Both the position numbers and the translations under genes were made by a program. This document shows positions 33,301 to 64,000 of a stretch of DNA of 64,000 bases, in pieces. Source of the DNA: Naegleria gruberi. Its lineage: Eukaryota. The number at the start of each line of letters is the position of its first letter. Within the stretch, counting starts at the first letter, position 1. Under the pieces are notes generated by a model, which saw only the letters and a list, made by a program, of their open reading frames with translations, was not told where the DNA came from and searched no databases. The stretch lies in the NCBI GenBank assembly GCA_000004985.1, contig GG738847.1. One strand, written 5' to 3'.

Positions 33301-35959
33301 CAAGAAGATTTACATTTCACCATACTCTGATAATTACATGATTTTCAAGTTGGACATGGATGAAGGTGATGAATTGGTAGAACTAGATAACAAGTGGGAA
33401 TTTTTGGAAGAATTTAACAAGCTTATTGAATCAACTGCCTCTAACTTTAAGGGTGAACATGTTCCAAGAGTTGAAGTTACCAAGGACATTAGTATCCTCA
33501 ATCATCAAAAGGACAAGAACACTGGTACTCAAAATTTATTGGTCAGATTTATTCCATCTGCCTACAATACCAAGAAGACTGTTACCACTGAATGCTATGC
33601 TGATGAATTTGATAATAGACTCTTCATTGTCAACACCTTCACTCAAGCTGATATTTACAATCAAAGAAAGTTGAGAAGAAAGGCCTCACTCTATGCCAAG
33701 CAAGATCAAAACAGAGATTACTTGAGAATGCAAAACAGTGAATTGATGCAACTCTTAAAGAAGGATTATGATGACTCCAAAGTTCTATTCTCTGGTGTCG
33801 TTTCCAAGTATAACAAGAGATTCAAGAAGCAAGACAGAATTTTCATGGTCACCGATAAGGCCATTTATAATATTGATCCAAGTGGTGGTTACCTCATCAA
33901 TAGACGTGTTCCAATTGGCCAAGTAACCTCTGTCACTGTCTCACCTTACACTGATAACTTCTTTGTTGTTGATCATCCAGATCAAGATATTTTGAGTGAA
34001 AGTGCCAAGAAGACTGAAATTTTGGAATCCATTTTGGAAAGCTTCCAAAATGCTACCAATCAATTGTTACCGGTCAAGGTCACTACCAACTATTACATTA
34101 ACTTGGCCAAGAAGAATACCAAGCGTGTCGCTATTTCATGGATTATTGAACCAGAAAATCAAACACAATTCTCAGTTTCTACACTTGTTCCAAATACTGC
34201 TGGTGGAGCTGATGTTCATGTTGTTTCTGAAGTTGATAACGATAATGACAAGTCAATGAATGATTTGGCTGTTAGACAATCCTTCCAACGTAGATCAGTT
34301 CGTGGTAAGATGGTTAAGAATGGTGATATGGATGAGGTTGATTTGAATGACGTCTTTGGTGGTTTGAAGGTTCGTAGAAAGGACTCTCTCCTCGTCTGGT
34401 TCCAAGGTGATTATTTGAACTTTAAGGACAATCCAAAATTCATCGAAATGGTCAAGAAGCACGATCCAGAATGGAATGGACAAGTTCTCTTCTCTAACCT
34501 AATGACTAAAGTCAATAAGAGATTCAGAACTCAACCTAGAAAGGTTGTAGTTACACCAAATTACATTTACACTCTCGATGATGAAAAGTTACACTTTAAC
34601 AGAATTACTCCAATCAAGGATTTGAGTGGTATTTCTCTCAGTACTATGAGAGATGCCTTCTTTGTTGTCCACTGCCCAACTGATCACGATTTATTTGCAT
34701 CTTGTAAGAAGAAGACTGAATTAGTTTCTGTTATTTGTGATGCCTTCAAAGATAAGACTGGTATGGATCTCCCAGTTCACGTAGAAGATAAATTCGTCTA
34801 CAAACCAAGTACAGATGTTAAAGGTGTTAAAACAATTGAATTTAGACATGATCCAACCACCAAGGTTCCAATCCTTACTCCAACCAAGTTGGGTTGTCTC
34901 ATTCAAGTTAACAATTCTGATCCTGAAAAGGTTAAACAAAACTTACCAACTGCCAAACAACAAAAACCAGCTGCAACTCCACAACTCAAGTTATATGAAG
35001 GTTCTGATGAAAGAGGTATTCAAGATAAGATGGATTCCATCTATACAGGAAGAAAGGGACGTAATAGAAGATCTCTCCTTCGTGAATATCTTGGTGACTA
35101 TTTGAGATTGGAAGGTACACAAAGAATGAAGAAGGTTTTCGATAGAAATGGTGATACTGAATTAATCTTCTCTGGACAAGTTCTCAAATATAACAAGAAC
35201 TTTAAGAAGCAACATCGTTTATTGGTTGTAACAGACAAGAATGTTTACAATATTGATGAACAAGAATTCAAGATTAAGAGAAAGATTCCACTTGAAGAAA
35301 TTACAGGTGTCTCTGTTTCTCCATTCGACGACAATGTATTTGTTATGCACTGTCCAACTAGTGGTGACTATTTGTTGGAAGATGAAAAGAAGACTGAAAT
35401 TATTTCTGCTCTCCAAAATGCAAGACTCAGACACTTGAAACAACCATTGAAGATTAATGTTGATGACCAATTTAACTTTGCTCCAAACTCTTCATCTACC
35501 ATGCCAGTTACTTTCATTAGTGATGATCACTGCAAGGATACTTGGGCTGAGAATAGAGCTAATGCATTGGTTGTTCACGTAAAGAGACAAGAACCTGGTG
35601 TAGTATTGGAAGCTGCCTATCTCTATTTGAATGAAGAATCTAAACCAATTGAAGTTAAATCAACACCAATTCTTATCAAATTGAAGAAGAGATGGACCTA
35701 CAAGTTGCAAATTCGTTTCTATGTCAATGAATACTTGGCAGGATGTGAATTCCACGAAAAGATTGATACTGTGTCTTCGAGACTTGAATTTGTATCCAAA
35801 GTTGTTGAACTGGAACCAAAAGAAGAACGTTATGTTATTACCCTTCCTGAAAGAAAGGTAATTTATTCATTGCTTTCCAAAACCAGAGTCAAGTGCAAGC
35901 TAGTTGATCCAAGTGGTAAAGTTCTCATGGCTGTTCGTTTTGTTTATGATATTCAATAA
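30284..35959 (+). CDS. Unconventional myosin, class-I-like. The head has GESGSGKT P-loop, NNNSSRFGKF switch I and DIYGFE switch II. One IQ motif follows, then a tail of 3-4 tandem TH1-like (PH-like) modules. This is probably the C-terminal continuation of the upstream WW-domain ORF.
   Basis: Frame-2 ORF is open from about 30175 to the TAA at 35957-35959. The track start at 30284 is a TTG. The first in-frame ATG (30338) is still upstream of the earlier ORF's stop, so the two ORFs cannot be separate genes. The motor begins TEIDLTNILANRYYQNEIYTCVGPAILSINPYK. IQ motif: ARKIQNSFRRYRKKR. TH1-like repeats: VLFSGVVSKYNKRFKKQDRIFMVTDKAIYNID..VSPYTDNFFVV; VLFSNLMTKVNKRFRTQPRKVVVTPNYIYTLD..FFVVHCP; LIFSGQVLKYNKNFKKQHRLLVVTDKNVYNID..VSVSPFDDNVFVMHCP. 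Confidence 0.85.
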   Translation: MESSAKNDHRQSTVIREDVMLQPQLMPSLPDEVGFSRKSISRDRYQPINSAYQQDFRVRRLEDREMCDDLTLLLSQSSMKSKKSEQMVVPQKTEITEIDLTNILANRYYQNEIYTCVGPAILSINPYKAVKGLYSNETKALFHSHIPYELAPHIYSLAEDAYRTLLEHATANKPTSTHVTRARPAITAVSSSSAHSKKMPPPPPPGKPINKEADLDDDTFIINDFSISDGIGVGQAIIIQGESGSGKTLASRIIMEYLAAVSISGLETQRIKDSILQSNPLLESFGNAKTLRNNNSSRFGKFTNLYFNFKGQLMGGELTTILLEKARVVKRRLGERNFHIFYQLLSDDYIRKQLNLGFPEEYNYLNNNVININEVDDKSEFETTKRAMDLLDMSVPEQMAVFKIVAAILQLGNITFTAIEDPEERKRRNIAPGVEACDVSNEASLKLVANTLQIDAEFLRRSMIIRVIKTVGSPMPIEQTQSVEQAEFNRDTLAKNIYERLFLWLVKRVNRALRVPDYEDFVAKKNSETYYNIGILDIYGFEIYDKNIGTGKIVDQDEASNQGKLKNGFEQLCINFVNEKIQSGVQRSIKKEQEDIQKEIYGDDFKPTLASTQERNKRFDSDAAIQMIAGKPISVFSLLDEESMFPNGNDVNYVQKMKTNIKHPYFKIPRIAEPTEFELEHFAALVKYNTADGWVDKNRDTLLAEMLYTMQNTKDHLLMALFPKNEQANDVLSKKPANAGTKLQQTTAEKFLRDVSKLMNQLSSCSLKHHHIRCIIPNYEGRADDFQKDVVNHQVRYLGILDTVLSRKADDLGSNVTGYSIKIPYDTFLERYKLLCPETFPYWETFITNKYGPVEEFTIEHKKEAVHQILSQEHIGMTNPQDFFLGRGNVLLASPVQLFQLDEMIREQKHEMARKIQNSFRRYRKKRAGKMEEMMKKAIKTTEPTKQKEAPEEIRIRHDGFRTSNFGETKKRVLITGSDRRNIFLLDTTSSSSEFEQLRKIAIRDIKKIYISPYSDNYMIFKLDMDEGDELVELDNKWEFLEEFNKLIESTASNFKGEHVPRVEVTKDISILNHQKDKNTGTQNLLVRFIPSAYNTKKTVTTECYADEFDNRLFIVNTFTQADIYNQRKLRRKASLYAKQDQNRDYLRMQNSELMQLLKKDYDDSKVLFSGVVSKYNKRFKKQDRIFMVTDKAIYNIDPSGGYLINRRVPIGQVTSVTVSPYTDNFFVVDHPDQDILSESAKKTEILESILESFQNATNQLLPVKVTTNYYINLAKKNTKRVAISWIIEPENQTQFSVSTLVPNTAGGADVHVVSEVDNDNDKSMNDLAVRQSFQRRSVRGKMVKNGDMDEVDLNDVFGGLKVRRKDSLLVWFQGDYLNFKDNPKFIEMVKKHDPEWNGQVLFSNLMTKVNKRFRTQPRKVVVTPNYIYTLDDEKLHFNRITPIKDLSGISLSTMRDAFFVVHCPTDHDLFASCKKKTELVSVICDAFKDKTGMDLPVHVEDKFVYKPSTDVKGVKTIEFRHDPTTKVPILTPTKLGCLIQVNNSDPEKVKQNLPTAKQQKPAATPQLKLYEGSDERGIQDKMDSIYTGRKGRNRRSLLREYLGDYLRLEGTQRMKKVFDRNGDTELIFSGQVLKYNKNFKKQHRLLVVTDKNVYNIDEQEFKIKRKIPLEEITGVSVSPFDDNVFVMHCPTSGDYLLEDEKKTEIISALQNARLRHLKQPLKINVDDQFNFAPNSSSTMPVTFISDDHCKDTWAENRANALVVHVKRQEPGVVLEAAYLYLNEESKPIEVKSTPILIKLKKRWTYKLQIRFYVNEYLAGCEFHEKIDTVSSRLEFVSKVVELEPKEERYVITLPERKVIYSLLSKTRVKCKLVDPSGKVLMAVRFVYDIQ

Positions 35960-36433: not shown

Positions 36434-37744
36434 TTAAAAAGACAAGTCAATCTTTTTCGAGTAAAATTGTTTGTACCACCTTCTCAACTTCATCACTGGC
36501 CCATCACCCTTCACCAAACTCGGTGTTCTCTTATAAATCTTATTCTCCCAAACTGTGATATCATTCTGCCACTGAGCTACCCAATTTCCCACAACATACC
36601 AAACTAATAGTCGAGGAATTTTCTTCTCTGCATACGCAACAAAGCCAACATCCAGATTTGTTTTGCTCTTTGGAGAATGTGTATGGAATAGATAGATTCT
36701 GCCAAAACTTCCATCAAATCTGAAAAGTGCAATTCCTGCAGGACCAAATAATTCAATTCGAGCATTTACGGTCGTGGAGGTGAGTTTCTTACCGAAAATT
36801 TCGAGACATGCCTTGTTAGTAAAGTAGGCAATATGAGGATCTGAATCTGAGAGTTTAAATTCTGCTTGATGTATAATTTGGACGAAAGGAACCTGAATTG
36901 AACGACCAAATATTGATCTAGGTCCACTCCATGGCAAAACCATTTGGCCATGCAAGGGTTGGAAATGTTGAAAATCTGCCGAGTTCTCAGCAAAATCTTG
37001 AATATTCATTCTAATATCTTCATATGAATAATTCCCAAAATGGTAAAATTTGTCCATGTCCAAATCTTGTGGATTCAACAATGGATACTGAGGTGGTAAA
37101 CCTTCCTTCTCTGAATGGAACCACACCAAAATCATACCATACTTCTCTTCACAATACCACGATCGAGTGTGAGCATTCTTTGGAATTGTTTCATTACAAT
37201 TTTCTGAATGTTGACATGAGCTCTTGTCACAATTATTTGGAATTTTGACACATTGACCATCTCTATCAAATTCCCATAAATGAAATGGACATTGAATGTT
37301 ATTTCCAATAACCTTACCTTCCACTCCTAAATTACTTCCCAAATGTGGACAATAAGCATCTAAAACTCCGACAGAACCATCAAATCCTCGAAACACAACC
37401 ATGTCCTCGCCAAAGTAGTGGACAAGTTTGGAGCTACCTTTTGATAACTCATTTGAGAAACAAATTCTGAACCAACCGTTTGGAAACTGATCAATAAACG
37501 TACTTTCTCTAAATTTAGATGATGCATTTCTATTCGATTCTGCTGAATGTTTTTGATCTTTCGTTTTGAAATCATACCACTTGTTGGCTATCAGGACTGC
37601 CAATAGTACAAGATTGAGAAGTAAACTAACTGCAATAAGCGTTTCAGTTTCAAAACTAAACATTTTTTTTAACTTTCTCAAATTGACTAGACGAAACTGA
37701 TTGTACTCACGTGTTATTGAAGTGAAAATAGAGAAAGGATGCAT
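36434..37744 (-). CDS. Rieske [2Fe-2S] non-heme iron oxygenase with an N-terminal membrane anchor. Neverland/DAF-36-like (cholesterol 7-desaturase family) candidate.
   Basis: Rieske ligands CPHLGSNLGVEGKV...NIQCPFHLWEFDRDGQC (CxH...CxxH). The motif GWFRICFSNELSKG..LVHYFGEDMVVFRGFDGSVGVLDAYCPH is characteristic of the Neverland family. N-terminal TM TLIAVSLLLNLVLLAVLIANKWY. The likely true start is the second ATG at 37663 (AAAAAAAATG context); the ORF is otherwise open from 37744. Confidence 0.75.
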   Translation of the reverse strand: MHPFSIFTSITREYNQFRLVNLRKLKKMFSFETETLIAVSLLLNLVLLAVLIANKWYDFKTKDQKHSAESNRNASSKFRESTFIDQFPNGWFRICFSNELSKGSSKLVHYFGEDMVVFRGFDGSVGVLDAYCPHLGSNLGVEGKVIGNNIQCPFHLWEFDRDGQCVKIPNNCDKSSCQHSENCNETIPKNAHTRSWYCEEKYGMILVWFHSEKEGLPPQYPLLNPQDLDMDKFYHFGNYSYEDIRMNIQDFAENSADFQHFQPLHGQMVLPWSGPRSIFGRSIQVPFVQIIHQAEFKLSDSDPHIAYFTNKACLEIFGKKLTSTTVNARIELFGPAGIALFRFDGSFGRIYLFHTHSPKSKTNLDVGFVAYAEKKIPRLLVWYVVGNWVAQWQNDITVWENKIYKRTPSLVKGDGPVMKLRRWYKQFYSKKIDLSF

Positions 37745-39612: not shown

Positions 39613-42600
39613 ATGACAGCAGCTGTCAATAATCGAAAGAAAATGAAGTGTTCAAATAAGAGACGACAACAGTTGACCACCACCATCATGATGTTCATGG
39701 TGATGGTGATTGGAATTATTTTACTCACCAAAAATGTTCAAAGTTTATTACCACGATATAAAATTGAAGTGCTATCCGGAAATCCATACATGTCCACAGC
39801 ACTCTATGATGGAATTATGGCCACAGATGCAATTCTCAACCTTCCAAGAAACGTACTCCTCTACAATGATGAATTGTACATATCCGATACCTTTAATCAC
39901 ATGATTAGAAAGGTTTCGAAAAATGGAACACTCACCACATTGGTAGGAGTTGGTGCTGCTGGTTCAAATGATGATGATGGTTTGCTTGGAATTGATACTC
40001 AACTAAACAATCCGAATGGTTTATCCATTTCTCCAAATGGTGAATTATTGTTTATTGCTGATACTGATAACAAATTGATTCGAGTTTTGAATATGAAAAC
40101 AATGATTTGTAATGTATTTAAAATGTTTACATCGAGTGGGGTGTTAGATACCTTGACGAAACCAGTTGGTGTTTCCATTACAAGTAATTGGAATATTTAC
40201 ATAACCGATGACAAGTATGTGAAAAAGGTTAATTATTATACAAGAGTAGTTACAATTATTGCAGGAGGTATGTTATATTGTTATTGTTTTTAATACGAAA
40301 CTATTGAAATTTGTTTTTTTTTGTTCTGATTGACTAAAAAGGTGGAAGTGGTAGTTATAAAGATAATGTCGTTCCAACAACCATTTCAATCACAAGTCCT
40401 AAACTCATTCATACCATTCCTTACACTCCTGATTCTACTCTTGTAGTTTTTACTGATGCCACAACTGCTAAATTTATTATAGATACAGAAAGTTTACAAT
40501 CAACCACAAAAACAGGACTTGTAGGAGGGTAAGTTTTAATCATCAATTTATTGAGTACTAGAGTAATATATTTTGAAAAATAGTTCAAATATTCCAGCAA
40601 TTTTTCCATTTTCCACCACAACATTTTACTATTCTTTGGGAAATGGGATTTTTAACTTGGAAAGTGGAATTAATACTCCTAAATCTGCAACTACTGGTGG
40701 TGATGCTGGAAAGTATAGTGTAACTAATATGGCGTATTCTTATTTTAACACTTCTTATGGATTACATGGAAATAGTTCAGTGATTTATATTGCAGATTCG
40801 GCTAATTATTGTATTAGAAAGTATGATATTGCGAATAATTCTGTATCAACTGTTGCAGGTTTCAAATATCAACCTTCTTTTGAAGGAGTTTATGCTTTAT
40901 CTGTTTATGCAGATTTGAAAATTCAAAAGTTAACCGTGACCTACAAGGATGAAATTATTTATCTTGACACTAACAACAGAGTTAGAATGATTACAGCCAA
41001 TGGAAGAATCAAAACACTCATTGGATCTGAGTATACATCCAAATATCCAGTTTGTGTTTCAACATCTATTGCTTTGGAATGTAGGGCAACTAACGCGATT
41101 GATATTATGAGCGTTGGAGATTCTCTAATTCTCTCAACTTTAAAATTATTCAGTTATGATTTGGCAAGCATTTCAGGAACATCTACCATTACCCAACAAG
41201 GTACTGAACTAGTAGGTACTTTCTCTCTAAGAGCAATGAATGGCTCATCAGGTGCTGTCGTATATTTCCTAAATAATGCCAATCAATTGTTAAAAAAATC
41301 TTTAACTGGTTTGGAAACAGTTGTGAAAGGATCATTATCTGCATCAGATTTCAATATTGTAAATATTGATACTGATTTCGCTAGAATTTGCTATATTGAG
41401 AGTGGAATTATCACTTGCTTTAATGAGACTGATTTAAGTTCAATTGTTCTCCCAATGCCATCTGGAGAAACCAAGTTCACAAGCGTTGCACTCACTAGTA
41501 CTACTGTCTATGCATCAACAAGTAATAGAATCTATGCCTATTCAGTTTCTGATTATTCAACTGCTTACCTAATTGCAGGTTCAAAGCCAGTTAATGTGAA
41601 TGGACAAACTTTTGATTATAGTGGGTACAACAGTGATTACATTTTGGCAACTAGTGCTATTTTGAGTGATATCAGTAATTTGCAAGTCTCTTCTTCTAAT
41701 GGAAATATCTATTTTGTGAGTGGTGGTACTTTGATTAGAAGAATTGCCAATGGATTTGTTTCTACAGTTGCTGGTATTTCACCTCTCCATACAGAAGGTA
41801 TAACACCAATGGCAATTGCAAGAGATTCAGCTAAAAAGATCACCTATTTCATTGACAGTAATACACATGTTAAAATGATGGATGAAGCCAGTGGAATTAT
41901 TAGTCCACTTACTTTACCAATTAAACCAAGTCCTGATCCACAAAATATTACATTACCATTAACATTTTTAAGAGCTCCACCAAAGAATGCAGGTCAATTA
42001 TTGACTTATTCCTCCTATGATGGTTTATTATATCTTGCAGATTATTGCAGAATTATTTCCATCAATGTTACATCTGCTTCATACAAGCTTGTAACTGGTA
42101 CTGTGTGTGGAGATAGTGCTGACAATATTTTAGCAATCAATTCATTCATTCAAACACCAAGTTCCATGACAGTCGACTCTAAAACTGGAGATTTATACTT
42201 TACGTTTGGAACAAAGATTTTGAAAATTGAAAAGAAAACTGGTTTATTAACGACATTATATGGCAGTACTGGTAAAATTGGAACTGTTGTGAATGGAATA
42301 ATTTCCAAAACTTCTCTCCTCACCAACATTACAAGTTTGGTCGTGTCTGATGATATTATTTACTTTGCAGATATTACTCGTAGCGTTAGACAAATAGCTC
42401 TATCAAACAGTAATTTGACAACTTTGGTTACCATGGCTGCGGTCACTGAAAAGATGCTTTCAATTTCACTCGATAAGAATGGTGACATTTTCATTCTCGA
42501 TACCTATACTTACTTAATTAGCAAGTACATTAAAAGTTCAGGTGGGGTCCCCAAAGAGGTAGCAGGAAAACAATTTGGTAAAGGATTCAATGGAAGATAC

Positions 42601-44089
42601 AATGCTCAGGCAACGAATTCCAATTTGAGAAATTTTATTTCCTCTGTCAACATTGACAATGGAATAATGTTTACTGAAATTGCAGATAAGACTGGTGGTC
42701 TCATTAGAAAAATAACAGCTCAATGTGATGGAAATTCAACCCTGGACTCTAGTGGAGGTAGTTGTGTCTGTAATGATGGATACACTGGAGATTCTTGCAA
42801 TGTATTCGTTTGTTATGGTTTAACTGCAACTAGTTCAGAAGTATGCTCAGGAAATGGATCGTGTATTGATGTGAATGTGTGTAAATGTAGGGATGGATTC
42901 GAAGGTTCCTCATGTAATATTGTTAAGGCTGCAAATGTCACAACAGGAGATTCATTGGGTGTGATTTTACCTGCTGTTCTCGTTCCAATATTGGTTATTT
43001 TGATTATTATTGTAATTATAATTGTAGTGGTAATCATTGTGTTTGCCACAAAAAAGAAGAAGAAGAAGGATAAGGGATTGGAAGAAACCACAGATTTTGA
43101 TGAAGTTCCAATGAGTGATTTGCCATCTGACATGTCTGTCATTTTGAGTAGCAGTTTGACAAGAAGTGTTTCATCATCAACCAATGAAGAAGAAAATCTC
43201 TTTACAAGATATCAAGATATTGTCAAGATTGGACAGGGAGCATTCGGTAGTGTTTTTAAAGTTAGAGATACCAAAGACGGAGACAAGATCAAAGCTGTTA
43301 AAGTTTTGAAATTTAATTCTGTCAGTGATTTGAATATGATTATGAAAGAAGGTGCTCAATTAACAAACGCCAAACACAACCACATTCTCAAAGTCAATGA
43401 TTATTTCATTACTAACGACAATTTACTTTGTATTGATATGGACTATTATGAAAAGGGAGATTTGTCTCAATTTACCAAAACTGATTGTCCAGAACATATT
43501 GTAAAACAAATTCTCTATCAATTATGTGATGCTTTGAGTTATGTTCATGGAACTCTTTCCATGATTCACAGAGATATCAAGCCAACTAACATTTTTGTAA
43601 AGGAATATGATGGAACAAATGTCAGTGTCATTCTTGCTGATTTTGGTTTAGCCAAACAAGCTCAAGAATCAGCTGCAAATTCATATGCTGGTACTCCACT
43701 TTGTAAGTTTTTAATTTTCCTTTTTATTTACAAATATTTCAATTAATTTTACAATTTTAATTTTTTTAATATTTCAATTGTTAATTAATAATATTTCAGA
43801 TATGAGTCCTGAACTTGGATTAGGAGGAAAATATTATCCAAACTCTGATACTTATTCACTAGGTGTTACAATTTATCAAATAATGACAAAGGACCTTACC
43901 ACATCAATCAGTCACTTGTTGTTGAATGATCCACAAAATGCTCAATCGAAATTGAGAGACAAGATGAAACAATCTAAACTGGGTTACTCAGATCAGCTTA
44001 TTGACTTGATTATTAGAATGTTGGACAAGGACAGTTTAACTAGACCTAATGCTGCAGACATTCTTTCAGATTCGTATTTCAGAAGATAA
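39613..44089 (+). CDS. Four-exon gene for a ~1400-aa receptor-like protein kinase. It has a signal anchor, NHL-repeat beta-propeller region(s), EGF-like modules, a single TM, and a cytoplasmic Ser/Thr-type kinase domain.
   Basis: Exon 1 is 39613 (ATG, MTAAVNNRKK; the ORF is open from 39511) to 40267, with donor g|GTATGT. Exon 2 is 40342-40528 (GGSGSYKDNVVPTT...TGLVGG-), with donor gg|GTAAGT. Exon 3 is 40584-43702, ending ..SYAGTPL-, with donor t|GTAAGT. Exon 4 is 43800-44089, giving the junction GTPL-Y-MSPELGLGGKYY. Phases are consistent, and intron 2 (55 nt) is anchored to the ORF track. NHL-like repeats: LYISDTFNHMIRKV...LLFIADTDNKLIRVLN. EGF: CVCNDGYTGDSCN...CKCRDGFEGSSCN. TM: ILPAVLVPILVILIIIVIIIVVVIIVF followed by KKKKKK. 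Kinase motifs: IGQGAFGSVFKV, AVKVL, HRDIKPTNIFV, DFGLAK, GTPLYMSPE. Confidence 0.8.
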
Positions 44090-44377: not shown

Positions 44378-45757
44378 ATGACTTCTATCGATTTGGAAAT
44401 AATTGATGACCCAAAGTTGGTCAATTCATATCATTCACATAAGAAACATAATCATAATGATCACCATCATTTGAATCACCATCACAAACACTCATGTCAA
44501 GAGGAGGAAGAAGAATTGCAACCTGTTGAATTGACAACTACTCGTGTTAGATTGGACAATTCAACCTTGAGGAAGATCTATCTCTCAAAGAACAAACCAT
44601 TATGGAAGGAAGCTGATTTTATCAAGATGATCATAATGATTGCCATGATTTTTGTCATGTTTGGTGCTGAACTTTCTGTTGGTATCTTGGCTGCATCTTT
44701 AACACTTCTGGCCGATTCGTTCCATATGCTTTCAGATGGAATTTCTCTAATTGTTGGTGCAGCATGCATTTGGTTGGCTAAGAAGGGACCTACTGCAAAT
44801 ATGACCTTCGGTTTTGGAAGAGCTGAAACATTGGGTGGTTTAATTAATGCTGTGTTTTTGGTGAGTGTTGTGCTGTATGTGATAATGGAATCTATTCAGA
44901 GATTTTTCATGCCAGAGAGAATTGAGGATCCAATACTTGTGTTGTGTGTTGGAGGTGCTGGTTTGTTGATTAACTTGATTGGTCTTTTTATGTTTTGTGG
45001 CCACCATCCTGGACATGACCATGATCATGGACACGAACATGACCACAAACACTCAAAGGAAGAAGACCACCAACATGAATCTCATGAACACGATCATGAA
45101 CATACTGACCCACAATCCAACAATTCTCAAAAGAAAGAACACAAAGAACACAAGCACAGATCTGAAAATATTTTTGGTGTTTTTTTACACATTTTGGGTG
45201 ATTTTCTTGGCTCAGTTGCTGTCATGATTTCCTCTGGTCTCATTCTCATATTTGACCAAAAGGATGAGCAAGGCAATTATCCAAATACATGGGTTCTCTA
45301 TGTTGACCCAGTTCTCAGTTTAGTAATGAGTGGAATCATCTTATTCACAGCTGTTCCACTATTGAAATCAACATGTAGAACCTTGTTGCAATCAGTTCCT
45401 ACAGCAGTTGACATTCCTCAATTGAAAGCAAATATATTGGAAGTGGAGGGTGTAATTTCGTGTCATGAATTGCATGTTTGGCAACTTGCTGGAAAAACTA
45501 GCGTTGCAAGTGTTCACATTCTAACATCTGAAAGCAATGAAGAGTTTATGAGAATTGTTAAACGAGTACAACAGATATTCCACAAATTCAATGTTCATGC
45601 AACAACGATTCAACCAGAGTTTATTTCACTAAATTCCATGCAAGGAAATGAATCTCAACCTTGTCATTTAATTTGCTCTCCGTCATGCTATGAACAATTT
45701 TGTTGTGCACCAAATCCAGTGGAAATGGATATTGTAGATCCATCCAATAAAGTTTAA
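44378..45757 (+). CDS. Cation diffusion facilitator (CDF / ZnT / SLC30-like) zinc transporter with a His-rich cytoplasmic loop, 459 aa.
   Basis: Six TM helices with the CDF signature (ILAASLTLLADSFHMLSDGISLIVG; HILGDFLGSVAVMIS). A His/Asp-rich loop (HHPGHDHDHGHEHDHKHSKEEDHQHESHEHDHEH). A C-terminal cytoplasmic domain with HELHVWQL. Confidence 0.85.
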   Translation: MTSIDLEIIDDPKLVNSYHSHKKHNHNDHHHLNHHHKHSCQEEEEELQPVELTTTRVRLDNSTLRKIYLSKNKPLWKEADFIKMIIMIAMIFVMFGAELSVGILAASLTLLADSFHMLSDGISLIVGAACIWLAKKGPTANMTFGFGRAETLGGLINAVFLVSVVLYVIMESIQRFFMPERIEDPILVLCVGGAGLLINLIGLFMFCGHHPGHDHDHGHEHDHKHSKEEDHQHESHEHDHEHTDPQSNNSQKKEHKEHKHRSENIFGVFLHILGDFLGSVAVMISSGLILIFDQKDEQGNYPNTWVLYVDPVLSLVMSGIILFTAVPLLKSTCRTLLQSVPTAVDIPQLKANILEVEGVISCHELHVWQLAGKTSVASVHILTSESNEEFMRIVKRVQQIFHKFNVHATTIQPEFISLNSMQGNESQPCHLICSPSCYEQFCCAPNPVEMDIVDPSNKV

Positions 45758-52383: not shown

Positions 52384-52673
52384 ATTTCAGCTTCGTTACA
52401 CCCCACTATCAACATTCCACTGTGTAACTGCGGAAAACGTTGTGTTGTACAAAATGCTAAAATTTATTTCGATTTCCATTAAGTCCTTTCAAATTATGCT
52501 TATCCGGTATTCCATGTTATATTATTGCTCACAAATTTATTAAGGTAATGTAATTTCTTTTCAAAAAATAACATTAGTAAGTGCGCCCTTGCTGGTAATC
52601 CTTGTGGAAGCGCTTAATTTACATCTTAAAAAAAACCAACACGCAAACCAGGCTTTCACACTCTCCACATAAA

Positions 52674-54275
52674 ATGTGCTTCAACAACAAACAAGTTAGG
52701 CACAGTTTGTATGCTGGCATCTTTGCTGTTCTCATCATCATTGGTTGCCTCACCAGTTTTACTATGGGAGCCACAGAACACACAAGTCATCATAGAGATC
52801 CATTACCTAATCACGACTCTAATGATTACACTTATCAACATTCAAGCGGTTACATCCTGGTCAACTCCACTTATCAAAAACATTATTGGTACTATTTCCA
52901 ACAAGCTGCAACTAATCCAATTGAACGACCACTGATCTTGTTCTTGAATGGAGGTCCAGGTTGTTCATCAATGGAATATTTTGGAAGTGGCATTGGAAAT
53001 GTCAATGTTTCAACTGATGGAAAGCTCGCAATGGAAGATAACTACTATTCATGGAATAGGTTTGCAAATGTTATTTATTTGGATGCTCCAGCTGGTGTTG
53101 GTTACAGTTACGCAAATGACACCAGTGTTTATAAAGTGAATTCTGATGCACAAACAGCAGCAGAAACAAGATCTTTCCTCATTGAATTCCTAAACCATTA
53201 TTCCAAGTTCAGAAATAATGAGGTTTACATTTCTGGAGCTAGCTATGGTGGAAAATATGTTCCAGCTTTGGCAAAACTCATCTTGGAAGAAAATCTAAAG
53301 GGTGAATTCGTCATTAACTTGAAAGGAATCACACTTGGTAATCCCTTAATTCATTGGCAACAATCATTTATCTCATCATCCAATTACTATGCCTCTGTGG
53401 GAATGATTTCGAAAGAATTACTTGTAGAAGCTGCTTCAATTTGTGGATGGAACGATCCAGATAATTGGTTGGTTACTCACTCTGGCAATCAAGAATGCAC
53501 TGACAAATGTATGACTATCTATACTCAAGCTCATTCTGGAATTAATATTTTTAACTTGTTTAAGGATACATGTAACAATAATAATTTGAATAGCCTTGCT
53601 TGTTATGGAGAACATTTGAAGAAGTATATGAATTTGGAATCTGTTCAATCCTTCTTCAAGCTGAGAAGTAAGGTGGATTGGGATGCTTGCTATCCAAGAA
53701 ATGGTTTCGAATATGGAAAGGACGAATTTGTAAATGGTCTTCCAGCACTTCAATATCTTCTCGATAGGAAGAATTTCAAAACTTTGATTTATACTGGAGA
53801 TATGGATGGATCTACTCCTGTCGTGGGATTCTATGATGTTTTTGCTAAGGCAAATGGATTGACTGTTCAAGCAAATCTCACAACTTGGTCTGTTGATTAT
53901 CAAGTTGCTGGTAGAAAGACAGTTTACAGTAATGGATTGACATATGCAACAGTTAGAGGAGCAGGTCATATTGCTCCACTCGATCAACCAGCTAGAGTTT
54001 ATGCTTTGGTTTCAAACTTTATTCAAAATGGTGTCATTCCTGATTCGATTCTTCTACCAGAACTTCCAGAACCAGATCAGATCAATACTCCAGAAGTCAT
54101 TGCCCTGAAAACTCTCTCCGTTTTATTCATTTTTCTGACCATTATCCTTACCATTGTTGTCATTGTTTTGGCTGTCTGTTTGGGACGCCAATGTTCGAAA
54201 GTTAGAAAGGCAGGCGACTTTTTAAAGAGCTCTCAAATTCTATTGGTTTCAGATACTAACAAGGAACTATTATAA
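52674..54275 (+). CDS. Serine carboxypeptidase, peptidase family S10 (Kex1/cathepsin-A-like), with an N-terminal signal anchor and a C-terminal TM anchor.
   Basis: ATG at 52674 (MCFNNKQVRHSLYAGIFAVLIIIGCLTSF; the track start at 52602 is a TTG). S10 motifs: LFLNGGPGCSS; active-site Ser region VYISGASYGGKYVP (GESYAG variant with Ser retained); Asp in YTGDMDGSTP; His in VRGAGHIAPLDQP. C-terminal TM LSVLFIFLTIILTIVVIVLAVCLG. The 183-aa minus-strand ORF 53436-53987 is antisense noise. Confidence 0.85.
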   Translation: MCFNNKQVRHSLYAGIFAVLIIIGCLTSFTMGATEHTSHHRDPLPNHDSNDYTYQHSSGYILVNSTYQKHYWYYFQQAATNPIERPLILFLNGGPGCSSMEYFGSGIGNVNVSTDGKLAMEDNYYSWNRFANVIYLDAPAGVGYSYANDTSVYKVNSDAQTAAETRSFLIEFLNHYSKFRNNEVYISGASYGGKYVPALAKLILEENLKGEFVINLKGITLGNPLIHWQQSFISSSNYYASVGMISKELLVEAASICGWNDPDNWLVTHSGNQECTDKCMTIYTQAHSGINIFNLFKDTCNNNNLNSLACYGEHLKKYMNLESVQSFFKLRSKVDWDACYPRNGFEYGKDEFVNGLPALQYLLDRKNFKTLIYTGDMDGSTPVVGFYDVFAKANGLTVQANLTTWSVDYQVAGRKTVYSNGLTYATVRGAGHIAPLDQPARVYALVSNFIQNGVIPDSILLPELPEPDQINTPEVIALKTLSVLFIFLTIILTIVVIVLAVCLGRQCSKVRKAGDFLKSSQILLVSDTNKELL

Positions 54276-54541: not shown

Positions 54542-55675
54542 ATGTCCTTCTGTGAAGACGTTCAAGCCCTCGTTGTCGATAACGGTTCTGGTATGTGTAA
54601 AGCTGGTTTTGCTGGTGATGATGCTCCAAGAGCTGTCTTCCCTTCAATTATTGGTAGACCAAAGCAAAAATCAATCATGGTTGGTATGGGTAACAAGGAT
54701 GCCTATGTTGGTGATGAAGCTCAATCAAAGAGAGGTATCTTAACTTTGAAGTATCCAATTGAACATGGTATTGTTACCAATTGGGATGATATGGAAAAGA
54801 TTTGGCATCACACTTTCTACAATGAATTGAGAGTTGCTCCAGAAGAACACCCAGTCTTGTTGACTGAAGCTCCTTTGAATCCAAAGGCCAACAGAGAAAA
54901 GATGACTCAAATCATGTTTGAAACCTTCTCAGTTCCAGCAATGTATGTTGCTATTCAAGCTGTCTTGTCCTTGTATGCTTCTGGTAGAACTACTGGTATT
55001 GTTTTGGACTCTGGTGATGGTGTCTCTCACACTGTTCCAATTTATGAAGGTTATGCTTTGCCACACGCCATTTTGAGATTGGATTTGGCTGGTCGTGACT
55101 TGACTGATTATTTGATGAAGATTTTGATGGAAAGAGGTTACTCATTCAATACTACTGCTGAAAGAGAAATTGTCAGAGATATTAAGGAAAAGCTCTGTTA
55201 TATTGCTTTGGACTTTGAAGCTGAAATGAAGGTTGCTGCTGAATCATCCTCTGTTGAAAAGTCATACGAATTGCCAGATGGTAATGTCATTACTGTTGGT
55301 AATGAAAGATTCAGATGTCCAGAAGTCTTGTTCCAACCTAATTTCATTGGTATGGAAGCTGCTGGTGTTCATGAAACTACTTTCAACTCCATTGGTAAAT
55401 GTGATATTGATATCAGAAAGGACTTGTATGGTAACGTTGTCTTGTCTGGTGGTACTACTATGTTCGAAGGTATTGCTGAAAGAATGACCAAGGAATTGAC
55501 TGCTATGGCTCCTGCCTCAATGAAGATTAAGGTTGTTGCTCCACCAGAAAGAAAGTACTCTGTCTGGATTGGTGGTTCCATCTTAGCGAGCCTTTCGACC
55601 TTTCAGCAGATGTGGATCACAAAGGAAGAATATGAGGATGCCGGTCCAGGTATCGTTCACAGAAAGTGTTTCTAA
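54542..55675 (+). CDS. Conventional actin, 377 aa, single exon.
   Basis: [41 protein letters not shown]...[17 protein letters not shown]. Near-complete identity to canonical actins over its whole length. The ATG is preceded by an A-run. The N-terminus MSFCED and K41-Q42-K43 are mildly unusual. Confidence 0.95.
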
Positions 55676-56094: not shown

Positions 56095-56437
56095 TTATAT
56101 ATGATGATAGAAAATTGGGTCACGTTTCAAAGCTTTTCTATCAATCAAGGACCAAATAAGAGTAATTTCTCTTTTAATATTATCATAAGACCATGAAATT
56201 GGAAAAACTATTCTCTCAATATTGGCCCAAAATTGAAGGGATGGTCTCAAGGCTTCAACACGAGATGATTGACCTTGAATTGTAAGATAAGCAATTATAA
56301 ACGTAGTTCCTTCGAATTTGTTCCATAATTCGGATAATGGTTTGANNNNNNNNNNNNNNNNNNNNNNNNNNNNNNNNNNNNNNNNNNNNNNNNNNCGAAT
56401 TTGTCCATAATTCGGATAATGGTTTGATTAAAAGCAT
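56095..56437 (-). CDS. Putative small minus-strand CDS, interrupted by the 50-nt assembly gap. The lower-coordinate part encodes ...KPLSELWNKFEGTTFIIAYLTIQGQSSRVEALRPSLQFWANIERIVFPISWSYDNIKREITLIWSLIDRKALKRDPIFYHHI*. Function unknown.
   Basis: Minus-strand frame is open from ATG ~56437 (MLLIKPLSELW) into the gap. The sequence on the two sides of the gap is a near-exact duplicate (cgaatttgt(t)ccataattcggataatggtttga), so the gap is probably a contig-overlap artefact. A possible upstream exon MDPITRCLKLPEKPT with a GTAAAA donor lies at ~56690. Weak model. Confidence 0.3.
56346..56395. other. Assembly gap (50 N) flanked by a ~33-bp direct duplication. Likely a scaffolding join of overlapping contig ends.
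   Basis: N-run 56346-56395. Left flank is ...cgaatttgttccataattcggataatggtttga and right flank is cgaatttgtccataattcggataatggtttga... Confidence 0.9.
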
Positions 56438-56731: not shown

Positions 56732-59700
56732 TTAAACATGCTTCAATTCAATCGTAGAACTGCTTTCTTGTGTTTGCATGTATGAGTGTGAATTTCTTGT
56801 ATTGTTCTTATCTTTACCGAGTTTCTTTACTACAAACCAAATAATTACTGCAATTAGTAGGGCAGTTAGTGGAATGAGGACTAGTAACATTAATAACCAC
56901 ATTAATGGATTGCTAGTTGCAGGTTTTTTGACAATTATATTTGAATTTGATGAAGAGGAGGTTGATGCAGTTTCAATTGATTTGTATTCAAGAATTGCAA
57001 GATTATATCTTAATGAAGAGCATTCACAAGTTGCTATTTGGTTCTTGATAGAAATGGAACAATCAGTTTCCAATGATGCTGATCCAATGTTAGCACAAAC
57101 ATAAGTTGACTGACTGTCGTATTGTTTCATCTCAATGTCGAATAAGTATTTTGAATAAGATTGAGGTGAAGGATCAAGTTGTAAACTATTTACAACTGAA
57201 TTGATAGATATCATCTTTCCAGGTTGCTTTAAAATTGCAATGGTATCTGTATTTTTTTGAATATTCCATCTATACTTGATTGGTGACTTGATTGAATTGG
57301 TTTTCAAGAAAGATGAAATGTTCAATGGTAACGTGATATTTACCATCTCACTTTCGAATTTCATTCCATTCATTTCATTCTTGAAATGCTTGTTTAAAAC
57401 TGTCAAATAACTGTTAGTTTCAAATTTAAATGGTGTTTGACCAATTAAAACATTTCTCAATAAAACTTGTCCTAATAATTCAAAAGTTTCCAATAATTTT
57501 TCATTTGAAACTAAAGCCATTAAATTTTCTTGCAAATTCATAATATTTTGCAAGTTGACCAAATCGCCTCTAGACAGAACAAAGGCAGTGCTTGATTGAA
57601 CTGATGCCAAAGCATCTCTCAATAAAAATAAACTAGAGTTGGCCGTTTGGTTGGAATGATATTCAGAATTTTGTGAAATTGAATTCAATCCAAATAATAA
57701 ATTTGTAATGTAATTTCTATTTGTTGATTCTGCAGCAGTTGTCATGATTTGACTGGAACCCATAAAATCATTCAATAAATCTCTAATTAAAGATTGAATA
57801 AATTCAAAATCTTCAATGGTCCATCTACAATTACTTGTTGTAAATCCAGAATTACAAACACATTTCCCATCCTTAAATTGTCCATTTCCATTACATAAAC
57901 CTCTCTTTGAACTTATACTGTTAATTAATAAATTCATTGTTCTAGAAATGGTTGCAGTATTGAAAACACTTCGTTGATAATCACCAATAGGAGCCAGTGC
58001 TGCAATTTGGTTCCAAGAAGCTGTTAACTTTTTGATTTCTGCTAAACTTTTGACAACTGGAAGAGTGATGGTAACTTGTTTGGTTGTTATGGAGCTAGAT
58101 CCTGTTAATGGATCAATTACCTTGATATAAAGATCTAATTTGTTTCCAGAATTTGGCATTGGAAGTTTTTGATATAATTCTTCTGTTTTAGAAAGTGGAA
58201 AGGTAGATTTTGAAAAATCATCCATAAAACCATATTCGAAAGTATTACTATTCTGATCGTTTTGACATTTTGGACAATTGAAAGTAAATATTGTTGTCAT
58301 TGCAATACCACTCAAAGGTGACACTTGACAGTCACATGGTTTTGGTGATTTGTTAATTATAAATGAATGATTCAAAGAGGCAGATAACAAAGACTCAATA
58401 TTAGTAACTTTGAAAGAAATTTGATAAGTAGAACCTTCTGTCAAAGAAGACGTGTCCAAAATTAATTCGTTGGACTCGGAAAGTTGCATTCTCATAGTAC
58501 TTGTCAATTCTGAAGGAATAGATTGACCATTCATTGTCCATTCTCTAATAATATTGCTGCTTGCACTCGAAACAATACTTTGTACGCTTAATAAAGTTCC
58601 CTTATTCAATTTAGATGGGGGTGAGTTAGCTGGTGTGATGGAAGGTGGAATTTTTTCAGGAGATTCTGGGAATAAAATGGAGAGAGTTGAAGTGGAATAT
58701 CTGGAAACCTTACTTGACCTTAATGAAATGTCGAATTGAGAAGCACCGTTCACTAATGATTTTGTAATTGTTAATGTATTATTCTTGATAGATGATAGAT
58801 ATTGTAAGATGTTGTCATTGTTATTCAAATTATTGGTAGACCATTCTCTTTCGAATGGAATAGTTTGCAAATCAGAATCCATTTCTTCAATCTCAATTGT
58901 TACTTGGTCAATTGTTAATTCAATTTGGATCAAGTTAACAACCAGTGGACTAGCTGTCATTTGGATATTAAGATTGGCTGATGAAATTTGATCTTCTTTG
59001 CCTTTCAAATATGATGAAACTTTAACTTGATGTGTTAACTGTGCCAAATCATTAAATTTAACAATCTTCAAGTTATTGTAAGAGTCAACTTGATATTCCA
59101 TTCCAGTTCCACTCAAATATTCCCATTTTACAATAATTTCAGAGTTTGAAGGTAAACAAGAAGGTAAGGTTATTAATTTTCTTACAATCAAAGGCAATGA
59201 ACTTGTTGAAAGAGAAAGGCTGTCACTTCCGTCAATAGAAATGACAGGTGTTGCATAATTCATCTTTTGGAATGTGACTTGCTTAGATGAGGATGCTTTC
59301 AAAATTTGGCTTGTAGCTGTCAATTTGAAAGTATGACTTCCAGCATTTATACTGTCAAAAATGATTGACAATTTGCTTGAATAATTGTTTGGAAGTGTCA
59401 TCATGTTTGAAGATACAATTTCCCATTTATAGGAAATTTGTTTTCCATCTGTGGAATAACTTTCACTTGCATCCAATAGAATATTTTCACAACTTGAATA
59501 TGTTGTTTTTGAAGAAATTAAAATTGTTGGGCGAATGGGATTTTCAGCATTTCCAATTTTGAATGATTGATAATCATTTCCTAATTTGTTTCTATTAAAC
59601 ACATTTCTATTCAATAAAATTTCTTGATCAACTTGAATAGAATTATCAGTTCCCAATTCAATAATAAAATCATTGGATGTCTTATTAGAATATCTACAAA

Positions 59701-60600
59701 CTACATTTGAACCAAATGAGGAAATACTTGAAGAATCTAATAAATTGTTACAATCAACATTTAAGGATGTGAAATGATTTGGAGAGGTCATTTGGAAAAG
59801 TAATCCATTTCCTTCATTATTGAAATGTACATTGGACAATTGAGTCATGCAATCTTCTCCATAAAATCCATCATTGCAAGTATTACAATTAGTTCCATTC
59901 CAATAACCGTTAGTTTCGTCTTGGAAACAAGTACAGAAACCATAGTCATCACATGTACCATGTGAATTGCATTTCAATGTAGCATTACACTTTTCAATAA
60001 CAGTACAATTAATTCCAGAGTATGGAATTTTACACTTGTCACAATTTGTTCCAACAAAGTGACCATCAATATCATTATCAAAACATGAACAGTTATTTGG
60101 AGCATTACATTTACCAACTCCATTGCAAACTTTCTTTGAATTCGATGAAATTCCATAGCAGATTGGATACTGACATATTGGCCCTTCGTAACCTTCCTCA
60201 CAAAAACATCCAACAGTTGACATGTTGAATTTACATGTACCATGTTGAGAACAAACTTTTGGATCTTTTTGTGGTAACCACATATCAACTCCTGCCTTAC
60301 ATAAAATCGTTTCACATTGTGGACCTATTGCTCTTCCACTTTCGGATTCCAAACAAGTACATTGATTAGCACCTGTGCATTTTCCTTGACCATTCGTACA
60401 AGCTTTCGAGTCATTATTGGATTTAAAACCAAAGCATGAATGAGAGGAACAAGTTTCTCCATCATATCCATCTAGACATTTGCATGTGTCCAAGGTTATG
60501 CATTGGCCATGGGAGGAACAAACTGAAGAATTGTAAAATGGAATTCCAAAACAAGATGGGAAATTACACTTAGCCCCAAACCATTTAGGATTACAAGAAC
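56732..60600 (-). CDS. 3' portion (>=1290 aa) of a large extracellular/type I membrane protein. It has multiple EGF-like / laminin-EGF-like repeats, a long S/T/N-rich region, a C-terminal TM (LMWLLMLLVLIPLTALLIAVIIWFVV) and a short cytoplasmic tail. The 5' end is lost in the assembly gap.
   Basis: ORF 56732-60493 (track M is a TTG). The same frame stays open upstream to the gap edge (..CNPKWFGAKCNFPSCFGIPFYNSSVCSSHGQCITLDTCKCLDGYDGETCSSHSCFG..), so the gene continues into 60601-63071. EGF patterns: CxC..G..G..C. The plus-strand ORFs inside are antisense noise. Confidence 0.75.
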
Positions 60601-63071
60601 NNNNNNNNNNNNNNNNNNNNNNNNNNNNNNNNNNNNNNNNNNNNNNNNNNNNNNNNNNNNNNNNNNNNNNNNNNNNNNNNNNNNNNNNNNNNNNNNNNNN
60701 NNNNNNNNNNNNNNNNNNNNNNNNNNNNNNNNNNNNNNNNNNNNNNNNNNNNNNNNNNNNNNNNNNNNNNNNNNNNNNNNNNNNNNNNNNNNNNNNNNNN
60801 NNNNNNNNNNNNNNNNNNNNNNNNNNNNNNNNNNNNNNNNNNNNNNNNNNNNNNNNNNNNNNNNNNNNNNNNNNNNNNNNNNNNNNNNNNNNNNNNNNNN
60901 NNNNNNNNNNNNNNNNNNNNNNNNNNNNNNNNNNNNNNNNNNNNNNNNNNNNNNNNNNNNNNNNNNNNNNNNNNNNNNNNNNNNNNNNNNNNNNNNNNNN
61001 NNNNNNNNNNNNNNNNNNNNNNNNNNNNNNNNNNNNNNNNNNNNNNNNNNNNNNNNNNNNNNNNNNNNNNNNNNNNNNNNNNNNNNNNNNNNNNNNNNNN
61101 NNNNNNNNNNNNNNNNNNNNNNNNNNNNNNNNNNNNNNNNNNNNNNNNNNNNNNNNNNNNNNNNNNNNNNNNNNNNNNNNNNNNNNNNNNNNNNNNNNNN
61201 NNNNNNNNNNNNNNNNNNNNNNNNNNNNNNNNNNNNNNNNNNNNNNNNNNNNNNNNNNNNNNNNNNNNNNNNNNNNNNNNNNNNNNNNNNNNNNNNNNNN
61301 NNNNNNNNNNNNNNNNNNNNNNNNNNNNNNNNNNNNNNNNNNNNNNNNNNNNNNNNNNNNNNNNNNNNNNNNNNNNNNNNNNNNNNNNNNNNNNNNNNNN
61401 NNNNNNNNNNNNNNNNNNNNNNNNNNNNNNNNNNNNNNNNNNNNNNNNNNNNNNNNNNNNNNNNNNNNNNNNNNNNNNNNNNNNNNNNNNNNNNNNNNNN
61501 NNNNNNNNNNNNNNNNNNNNNNNNNNNNNNNNNNNNNNNNNNNNNNNNNNNNNNNNNNNNNNNNNNNNNNNNNNNNNNNNNNNNNNNNNNNNNNNNNNNN
61601 NNNNNNNNNNNNNNNNNNNNNNNNNNNNNNNNNNNNNNNNNNNNNNNNNNNNNNNNNNNNNNNNNNNNNNNNNNNNNNNNNNNNNNNNNNNNNNNNNNNN
61701 NNNNNNNNNNNNNNNNNNNNNNNNNNNNNNNNNNNNNNNNNNNNNNNNNNNNNNNNNNNNNNNNNNNNNNNNNNNNNNNNNNNNNNNNNNNNNNNNNNNN
61801 NNNNNNNNNNNNNNNNNNNNNNNNNNNNNNNNNNNNNNNNNNNNNNNNNNNNNNNNNNNNNNNNNNNNNNNNNNNNNNNNNNNNNNNNNNNNNNNNNNNN
61901 NNNNNNNNNNNNNNNNNNNNNNNNNNNNNNNNNNNNNNNNNNNNNNNNNNNNNNNNNNNNNNNNNNNNNNNNNNNNNNNNNNNNNNNNNNNNNNNNNNNN
62001 NNNNNNNNNNNNNNNNNNNNNNNNNNNNNNNNNNNNNNNNNNNNNNNNNNNNNNNNNNNNNNNNNNNNNNNNNNNNNNNNNNNNNNNNNNNNNNNNNNNN
62101 NNNNNNNNNNNNNNNNNNNNNNNNNNNNNNNNNNNNNNNNNNNNNNNNNNNNNNNNNNNNNNNNNNNNNNNNNNNNNNNNNNNNNNNNNNNNNNNNNNNN
62201 NNNNNNNNNNNNNNNNNNNNNNNNNNNNNNNNNNNNNNNNNNNNNNNNNNNNNNNNNNNNNNNNNNNNNNNNNNNNNNNNNNNNNNNNNNNNNNNNNNNN
62301 NNNNNNNNNNNNNNNNNNNNNNNNNNNNNNNNNNNNNNNNNNNNNNNNNNNNNNNNNNNNNNNNNNNNNNNNNNNNNNNNNNNNNNNNNNNNNNNNNNNN
62401 NNNNNNNNNNNNNNNNNNNNNNNNNNNNNNNNNNNNNNNNNNNNNNNNNNNNNNNNNNNNNNNNNNNNNNNNNNNNNNNNNNNNNNNNNNNNNNNNNNNN
62501 NNNNNNNNNNNNNNNNNNNNNNNNNNNNNNNNNNNNNNNNNNNNNNNNNNNNNNNNNNNNNNNNNNNNNNNNNNNNNNNNNNNNNNNNNNNNNNNNNNNN
62601 NNNNNNNNNNNNNNNNNNNNNNNNNNNNNNNNNNNNNNNNNNNNNNNNNNNNNNNNNNNNNNNNNNNNNNNNNNNNNNNNNNNNNNNNNNNNNNNNNNNN
62701 NNNNNNNNNNNNNNNNNNNNNNNNNNNNNNNNNNNNNNNNNNNNNNNNNNNNNNNNNNNNNNNNNNNNNNNNNNNNNNNNNNNNNNNNNNNNNNNNNNNN
62801 NNNNNNNNNNNNNNNNNNNNNNNNNNNNNNNNNNNNNNNNNNNNNNNNNNNNNNNNNNNNNNNNNNNNNNNNNNNNNNNNNNNNNNNNNNNNNNNNNNNN
62901 NNNNNNNNNNNNNNNNNNNNNNNNNNNNNNNNNNNNNNNNNNNNNNNNNNNNNNNNNNNNNNNNNNNNNNNNNNNNNNNNNNNNNNNNNNNNNNNNNNNN
63001 NNNNNNNNNNNNNNNNNNNNNNNNNNNNNNNNNNNNNNNNNNNNNNNNNNNNNNNNNNNNNNNNNNNNNNN
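60601..63071. other. Assembly gap (2471 N).
   Basis: Continuous N-run. It removes the 5' part of the EGF-repeat gene and any sequence between it and the subtelomere. Confidence 0.95.
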
Positions 63072-63592
63072 GGTACTGTATCAATTTCATAATGATCTGT
63101 ATAGTAGATGTCATTGTCTCATCCCTGTATGTATCAAGTGGATCAGCCATGTACCATGAATGATATGGATGATCTTCAAAATCATATAGATATATTTAAT
63201 TATCATGTATAGATGTATTGGAAGTGAATTGAAGTGGTATAGATTTCTATCTTCAATGTTAGTATAGGTCAGTTGACAAGTTGAATAGTAAATATCCTGA
63301 AATGATACCAAAGTATTTGAAATTGATATATATCGTTATAAACATGATTTATAAGATGATATATTGATTTGAAATGATTTTGAAATGTTTTCATTGATAT
63401 TCTAATTGTCTAATCTATTATATGAAATTAACTTATATAAGTCATTATAATGATGTAATATTATGTTATTATATGATTATATATTCAATTTGGAGTATAT
63501 TGATATATAATATATTGATTTATAATGAGTATTTATTGAGATAATTAATTAAGATGAATAAAAGTCAAAATGTTGGGTCTGACCTTAGTCGT
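63072..63592. repeat. Subtelomeric AT-rich sequence with degenerate short repeats (tgatatat / atgattt / tatatga variants); telomere-associated sequence.
   Basis: ~85% AT with no ORFs. It is rich in imperfect tandem/interspersed motifs and sits immediately internal to the telomeric tract. Confidence 0.5.
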
Positions 63593-64000
63593 GGGTTTGG
63601 GTTTGGGTTTGGGTTTGGGTTTGGGTTTGGGTTTGGGTTTGGGTTTGGGTTTGGGTTTGGGTTTGGGTTTGGGTTTGGGTTTGGGTTTGGGTTTGGGTTT
63701 GGGTTTGGGTTTGGGTTTGGGTTTGGGTTTGGGTTTGGGTTTGGGTTTGGGTTTGGGTTTGGGTTTGGGTTTGGGTTTGGGTTTGGGTTTGGGTTTGGGT
63801 TTGGGTTTGGGTTTGGGTTTGGGTTTGGGTTTGGGTTTGGGTTTGGGTTTGGGTTTGGGTTTGGGTTTGGGTTTGGGTTTGGGTTTGGGTTTGGGTTTGG
63901 GTTTGGGTTTGGGTTTGGGTTTGGGTTTGGGTTTGGGTTTGGGTTTGGGTTTGGTTTGGGTTTGGGTTTGGGTTTGGGTTTGGGTTTGGGTTTGGGTTTG
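63593..64000 (+). repeat. Telomere-like tandem repeat (GGGTTT)n, about 68 units, with the G-rich strand running 5'->3' toward the window (chromosome) end. Truncated by the window edge.
   Basis: Perfect hexamer array from 63593 to the end of the window. There is one TTTGG variant near 63950. The G-strand orientation is as expected for a right-hand chromosome terminus. Confidence 0.85.

Follow-up and report, generated by a model that had tools for sequence, protein, structure and literature searches.

Telomeric repeats across eukaryotes were surveyed by Fulneckova et al. 2013 (Genome Biol Evol 5:468, PMC3622300), who screened 143 genome assemblies for repeats of the TnAmGo type on the basis of the position and the orientation of the repeats. 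In this screen TTTGGG was named, in silico, as candidate telomeric repeat of Naegleria gruberi, the genome of which is also among those behind the telomere phylogeny of the survey. The N. gruberi pattern was rated convincing in the genome-wide screen, which by the criteria given there corresponds to a predominantly terminal location; nothing had been available on the telomeres of this organism before 2013, and the terminal position is said to need experimental tests (PMC3622300). The survey infers that TTAGGG was ancestral in Excavata and that replacements followed (PMC3622300). TTTGGG would thus be a derived repeat, which differs from the ancestral one by a single A-to-T change. Beyond the in-silico report of 2013, the searchable literature contains no experimental telomere, telomerase or TERT data for Naegleria or Heterolobosea, and no heterolobosean telomerase RNA is described in it. 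Nanopore data for N. gruberi are mentioned in PMC12695648.

We here analyse a window of 64,000 nucleotides of N. gruberi DNA (the whole stretch, referred to below as the window), which ends in an array of 68 GGGTTT units. A preceding sequence-only reading of this DNA had interpreted the array as a chromosome terminus with a non-canonical telomere repeat and had considered the repeat to be informative about the organism. The latter holds, as TTTGGG is the published candidate repeat of N. gruberi (PMC3622300). The survey and the present analysis concern the same organism and the same hexamer, and the evidence is of the same type in both, namely terminal location and orientation of the repeat in the JGI assembly. 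In effect, the window belongs to the cases on which the published report is based and differs from it in nothing substantive; the TTTGGG finding, correct as it is, is already known and represents a rediscovery of the in-silico candidate. The significance of the locus is small, and its repeat agrees with the telomere motif reported for the organism in 2013. The present analysis adds the local anatomy, i.e. an array of 60+1+7 units, a unique flank of 521 bp and a gap of 2,471 N.

Among organisms whose telomeres have been characterised experimentally, the trypanosomatids are the closest relatives (PMC3622300). Their "human-type" TTAGGG repeat shares the hexameric length and the GGG core with the window repeat and is distinguished from it by one A-to-T change. 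Tetrahymena (TTGGGG) and Oxytricha (TTTTGGGG) likewise possess homogeneous arrays of the TxGy class without A, yet with a different T:G ratio and in Alveolata as opposed to Discoba/Heterolobosea. G3 and G4 tracts of this kind are able to form G-quadruplexes. The TTTGGG unit itself recurs in the macro- and micronuclear telomeres of Paramecium, which are made by telomerase, consist of A-free T/G hexamers and mix TTGGGG with TTTGGG by misincorporation at one template position (PMC13085455). In contrast, TTGGGG is absent from the 68 units of the window array, which thus does not show the irregular mixture of the variable Paramecium type, and the two organisms are unrelated. The remark in the sequence-only reading that TTTGGG is known mainly as a Paramecium variant is accordingly right with respect to the common unit; it does not extend to the arrays, which are mixed in Paramecium and pure in the window, and no identity of the two had been claimed there. 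A ciliate origin of the window was rejected, as its open reading frames (ORFs) reach 1,891 aa in the standard code, which argues against a ciliate in which stop codons are reassigned, and as it encodes a protein with 100% identity to an N. gruberi sequence.

Dictyostelium discoideum was the other organism considered, the sole ground being that both genomes are AT-rich and that both organisms are amoeboid. The rDNA-derived chromosome ends of D. discoideum carry A-G(1-8) repeats, which are unrelated in structure to the regular T3G3 units found here. Rfam detected no rRNA in the window. Together with the N. gruberi protein and the regular T3G3 unit, this bears out the earlier rejection of a Dictyostelium terminus.

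Anatomy of the terminal array

The (GGGTTT)n array occupies positions 63593-64000 on the plus strand (408 bp) and runs up to the window end. Direct reading, Tandem Repeats Finder (TRF) and a regular-expression parse agree on about 68 hexamers, as had been claimed. Hereby TRF delimits the repeat to 63592-64000 with a period of 6, 68.3 copies, 99% matches and a score of 811, while the parse resolves it into 60 unbroken perfect GGGTTT units (63593-63952), a single variant unit TTTGG and a second block of seven perfect units (63958-63999), followed by a lone G at position 64000. The variant, from which one G has been deleted, lies at 63950-63954 (+), in agreement with its location near 63950 given before; it could be a true variant repeat or a sequencing error close to the end of a read. 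In terms of run lengths the array comprises 68 GGG, 68 TTT and one GG, and no TTGGGG unit was encountered in parsing 63593-64000. The G-rich strand is the plus strand and points 5' to 3' toward the window end, so that the orientation assigned in the sequence-only reading is likewise correct.

The array thus consists of a short T/G-rich unit of the 5-8 nt class in tandem head-to-tail arrangement and has the G-strand polarity of a telomerase-type minisatellite. It lies on the last contig, beyond a scaffold gap, and continues to the terminal base of the window, with unique sequence on its proximal side only; the final base at 64000 falls in the middle of a unit. In the remaining 63.6 kb no (GGGTTT)n or (AAACCC)n run of at least two units is present on either strand. 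Given the base composition of the window, a single unit has a probability of ~1.8e-4, and 60 successive units at a given site have a log10 P of ~ -224, so that a chance origin of the array is negligible.

Array anatomy, polarity and position, along with the published N. gruberi candidate (PMC3622300), support the core of the earlier interpretation, and we regard it as very likely that the array is an N. gruberi chromosome end carrying a TTTGGG telomere made by telomerase. Hereby the assignment depends on the combination of position, polarity, length and genome-wide recurrence, for which the motif alone would be insufficient. Through this array, a scaffold end of the 2010 N. gruberi assembly is recognisable as a probable true chromosome end.

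From general telomere biology, such an array would arise by a TERT protein that elongates the G-rich strand at its 3' end and is guided by an RNA, the template of which holds about 1.3-1.8 copies of CCCAAA. Repeated rounds of copying and translocation would yield a highly homogeneous T3G3 array, the complementary C-strand would be supplied by lagging-strand fill-in, and the array, presumably bound by capping proteins, would offset end-replication loss. In the window the array directly adjoins a short unique AT-rich flank and no subtelomeric satellite. The observed homogeneity, with one variant in 68 units, is consistent with faithful templated synthesis.

The repeat defines the telomerase RNA template to look for. 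The template 5'-CCCAAACCC-3' that had been predicted from it is of reasonable length, whereas its register is one of six circular permutations, among which neither the array nor the window decides. Rfam returned no match of any kind within the window. Permutations of CCCAAA of at least 9 nt are absent from the window outside the array, and the scattered 8-mers occur at about chance expectation; a single window of 64 kb would not in itself be expected to contain the telomerase RNA gene.

As a side observation, (GGGTTT)n is free of stop codons in all six frames, which encode GF, GL and VW or KP, NP and TQ dipeptide repeats. Gene callers can thus output spurious repeat proteins at chromosome ends of this type.

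Flank, scaffold gap and neighbouring genes

The array is preceded by a unique flank of 521 bp (63072-63592, +), which is AT-rich, non-repetitive and devoid of a convincing ORF. Its GC content amounts to 24.4% overall and declines from 32% at the proximal edge to about 18-20% beside the array. The earlier description of this region as ~520 bp of AT-rich degenerate repeats therefore applies to the base composition but not to the repeats: TRF and a repeat search revealed nothing beyond micro-repeats of 8-16 nt in two to three copies. A subtelomeric repeat was considered for the flank and rejected, given that the same searches gave only short AT-rich two-copy matches. At the junction TTGGGTCTGACCTTAGTCGT (63574-63592, +), as read directly, one degenerate TTGGGT unit precedes an abrupt change to the perfect array.

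In a third-order Markov comparison the flank is fitted marginally better by a model trained on the low-GC spacers of the window (-1.265 per base) than by a model of the rest of the window (-1.294 per base), a weak difference. Six-frame translation is stop-rich throughout the flank, save for a minus-strand stretch of ~38 codons at the proximal edge. This stretch (63072-63190, -; 32% GC) stays open up to the adjoining gap and has an ATG within it. A gene that runs on into the gap could have its 5' portion here, and, if the stretch is coding, coding sequence would lie ~400 bp from the telomere.

Position 63072, which had been given as the start of the feature, is not a biological boundary. Immediately before it ends a 2,471-N scaffold gap (60601-63071, located by mapping of N-runs), which the sequence-only reading had left unmentioned; a second gap of 50 N was mapped at 56346-56395. 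The telomere-bearing piece is accordingly a terminal contig of 929 bp, i.e. about the length of one Sanger read. On its proximal side the larger gap cuts an ORF with REJ, PKD and EGF domains (56732-60600, -). An apparent ORF of 884 aa at 60496-63150 (-) was rejected as an artefact, in which the N-run had been translated.

The window has a GC content of 34.5% and encodes, at 16717-19272, a protein of 851 aa that is identical (100%, full length) to NAEGRDRAFT_78118 of N. gruberi, the contig of which measures 941,567 bp, and that has orthologues in N. fowleri (60% identity) and Willaertia magna (46% identity). Further along the window follow a filamin-repeat protein (21749-24199), a myosin with TH1 tail (30284-35959), a Rieske [2Fe-2S]/KshA-C-terminal-like oxygenase ORF (36434-37744, -), an EGF/NHL receptor kinase (40573-43746), a CDF transporter (44378-45757), a serine carboxypeptidase (52602-54275), an intact actin of 377 aa (54542-55675, +; ~8 kb from the telomeric array) and the large, gap-truncated REJ/PKD/EGF protein, ~3 kb from the telomere. 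The Pfam family of the oxygenase bears the name of a bacterial enzyme, 3-ketosteroid 9alpha-hydroxylase, which makes the gene a possible candidate for lateral transfer in Naegleria. The exact product of the actin gene is also encoded on a 1.2-kb Logan contig from run SRR3922091. Up to the gap the genes are of ordinary single-copy types with no sign of a specialised subtelomeric family.

The sequence-only reading had placed all of these genes in a right-arm subtelomeric context. While a terminus at the window end is supported, the connection of the genes to it consists in the 2,471-N scaffold join, and the genes themselves are ordinary. This raises the possibility that the array is a genuine N. 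gruberi telomere, the 929-bp contig of which was placed on the wrong scaffold, so that the genes of the window would not be telomere-proximal. The gap is the sole link between the contig and the gene-bearing scaffold, and a contig of about one Sanger read, the unique part of which comprises just 521 bp, AT-rich and low in complexity, is prone to wrong mate-pair joins; moreover, the actin, carboxypeptidase, transporter and myosin genes, which lie on the scaffold up to the gap, are without subtelomeric character. However, the exact size of the gap, 2,471 N, speaks for an estimate from spanning clone mates and against an arbitrary join. In addition, contigs of the public assembly JAESGV01 (see below), which end in the same repeat, also have genes close to the telomere, and such short distances imply that ordinary genes beside a TTTGGG telomere are not odd. 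Taken together, we consider a misplaced contig improbable and retain the chromosome end as assembled. A more general extension, namely that N. gruberi chromosome ends lack a subtelomeric repeat domain, with ordinary expressed genes (actin at ~8 kb, a giant REJ/EGF receptor at ~3 kb) reaching almost to a high-fidelity, pure T3G3 telomere, is put forward tentatively and appears rather doubtful at present.

The repeat in public metagenome contigs

To place the motif in a wider context, public metagenome contigs were scanned for (GGGTTT)6, and the resulting loci, at least 120 in number, were sorted by their distance to true contig ends and by polarity. Outside JAESGV01 the array is internal at 84 of 108 loci among the matches listed, and the remaining 24, terminal arrays point outward in 13 cases vs inward in 11. 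A split of this kind would be expected if assemblies broke at a plain microsatellite. Together, the prevalence of internal loci and the lack of an orientation bias imply that the TTTGGG motif by itself is not diagnostic of a telomere. Simple repeats of TTTGGG are widespread in nature.

These data bear on a second alternative, according to which the array is a TTTGGG microsatellite or satellite block in the interior of a chromosome, where the assembly or the window merely breaks off. Such a block would fit the environmental loci outside JAESGV01, both in their predominantly internal location and in the mixed polarity of the terminal ones, and would fit the fact that the window is cut in mid-unit at exactly 64,000. 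Yet the environmental arrays outside JAESGV01 comprise 6-20 units among the matches listed, which the 68 units observed here far exceed. Furthermore, the window array is near-perfect, is correctly oriented and is the sole such array in 64 kb, and the N. gruberi pattern was rated convincing in the published genome-wide screen (PMC3622300). An internal block is thus very improbable, and the telomere of an N. gruberi chromosome is the reading with which we proceed. That the contig instead is a contaminant or artefact, i.e. a read from an organism with T3G3 telomeres such as a ciliate, or else a chimeric clone, hardly comes into consideration, even though TTTGGG units occur in Paramecium telomeres (PMC13085455) and translation of the flank and similarity comparisons detected neither coding content nor homology by which it could be linked to Naegleria, since Paramecium arrays are mixed and the window array is free of TTGGGG, the contig is mate-scaffolded to a bona fide N. 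gruberi scaffold, and TTTGGG predominates as terminal pattern throughout the N. gruberi assembly (PMC3622300).

For pipelines that scan for telomeric motifs, the lesson is that position, polarity and genome-wide recurrence should be checked and that gaps beside terminal contigs should be reported. Among the environmental loci, two contigs with a GC content of 64-67% (L090 and L109) show units that change from GGGTTT to GGGGTT toward the contig end. This mixture of T3G3 and T2G4 resembles the Paramecium type but, unlike it, is found in GC-rich contigs.

Terminal TTTGGG arrays in JAESGV01

A different picture emerged for the assembly JAESGV01, where (GGGTTT)6 or more occupies a true end of the contig, its G-strand oriented outward, in 12 of 12 contigs among the matches listed (L005, L028, L029, L040, L054, L078, L080, L084, L085, L086, L106 and L120). 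Each of these arrays is pure and directly adjoins its own distinct unique flank, and the contig ends thus have the same architecture as the window, in which a unique flank passes into a pure TTTGGG array. These contigs show that pure TTTGGG acts as telomere in at least one standard-code eukaryote, and they point to one or more eukaryotes whose telomeres are pure TTTGGG and whose subtelomeres are very short. In some of the contigs long ORFs in the standard code are situated immediately beside the telomere, and in L086 an ORF begins within ~100 bp of the array. A comparison of ORF lengths under alternative genetic codes was indecisive for JAESGV01, because removing stop codons lengthens ORFs in AT-rich DNA.

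Comparison of JAESGV01 with the window revealed no DNA or protein similarity, and the JAESGV01 contigs gave no Rfam matches. In a database search a P4-ATPase fragment from JAESGV01 matched only itself and two relatives. In L086, a Ty3-like ORF with RT, RNaseH and integrase (L086:229-3765, +) adjoins the telomere, and a tandem pair of PPR proteins with DYW deaminase domain is encoded at L086:5668-8616 (-) and L086:8702-11497 (-). The best database matches of the PPR-DYW protein are solely plant PPR proteins, at 20-25% identity. PPR-DYW proteins are plant-type RNA-editing factors and are rare outside land plants; the gene class is present in Naegleria. A heterolobosean affinity of the JAESGV01 organism is a lead only. 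Should this organism prove to be a heterolobosean, the TTTGGG telomere would be a derived trait of the whole lineage, and the repeat would offer a direct handle for finding a heterolobosean telomerase RNA.
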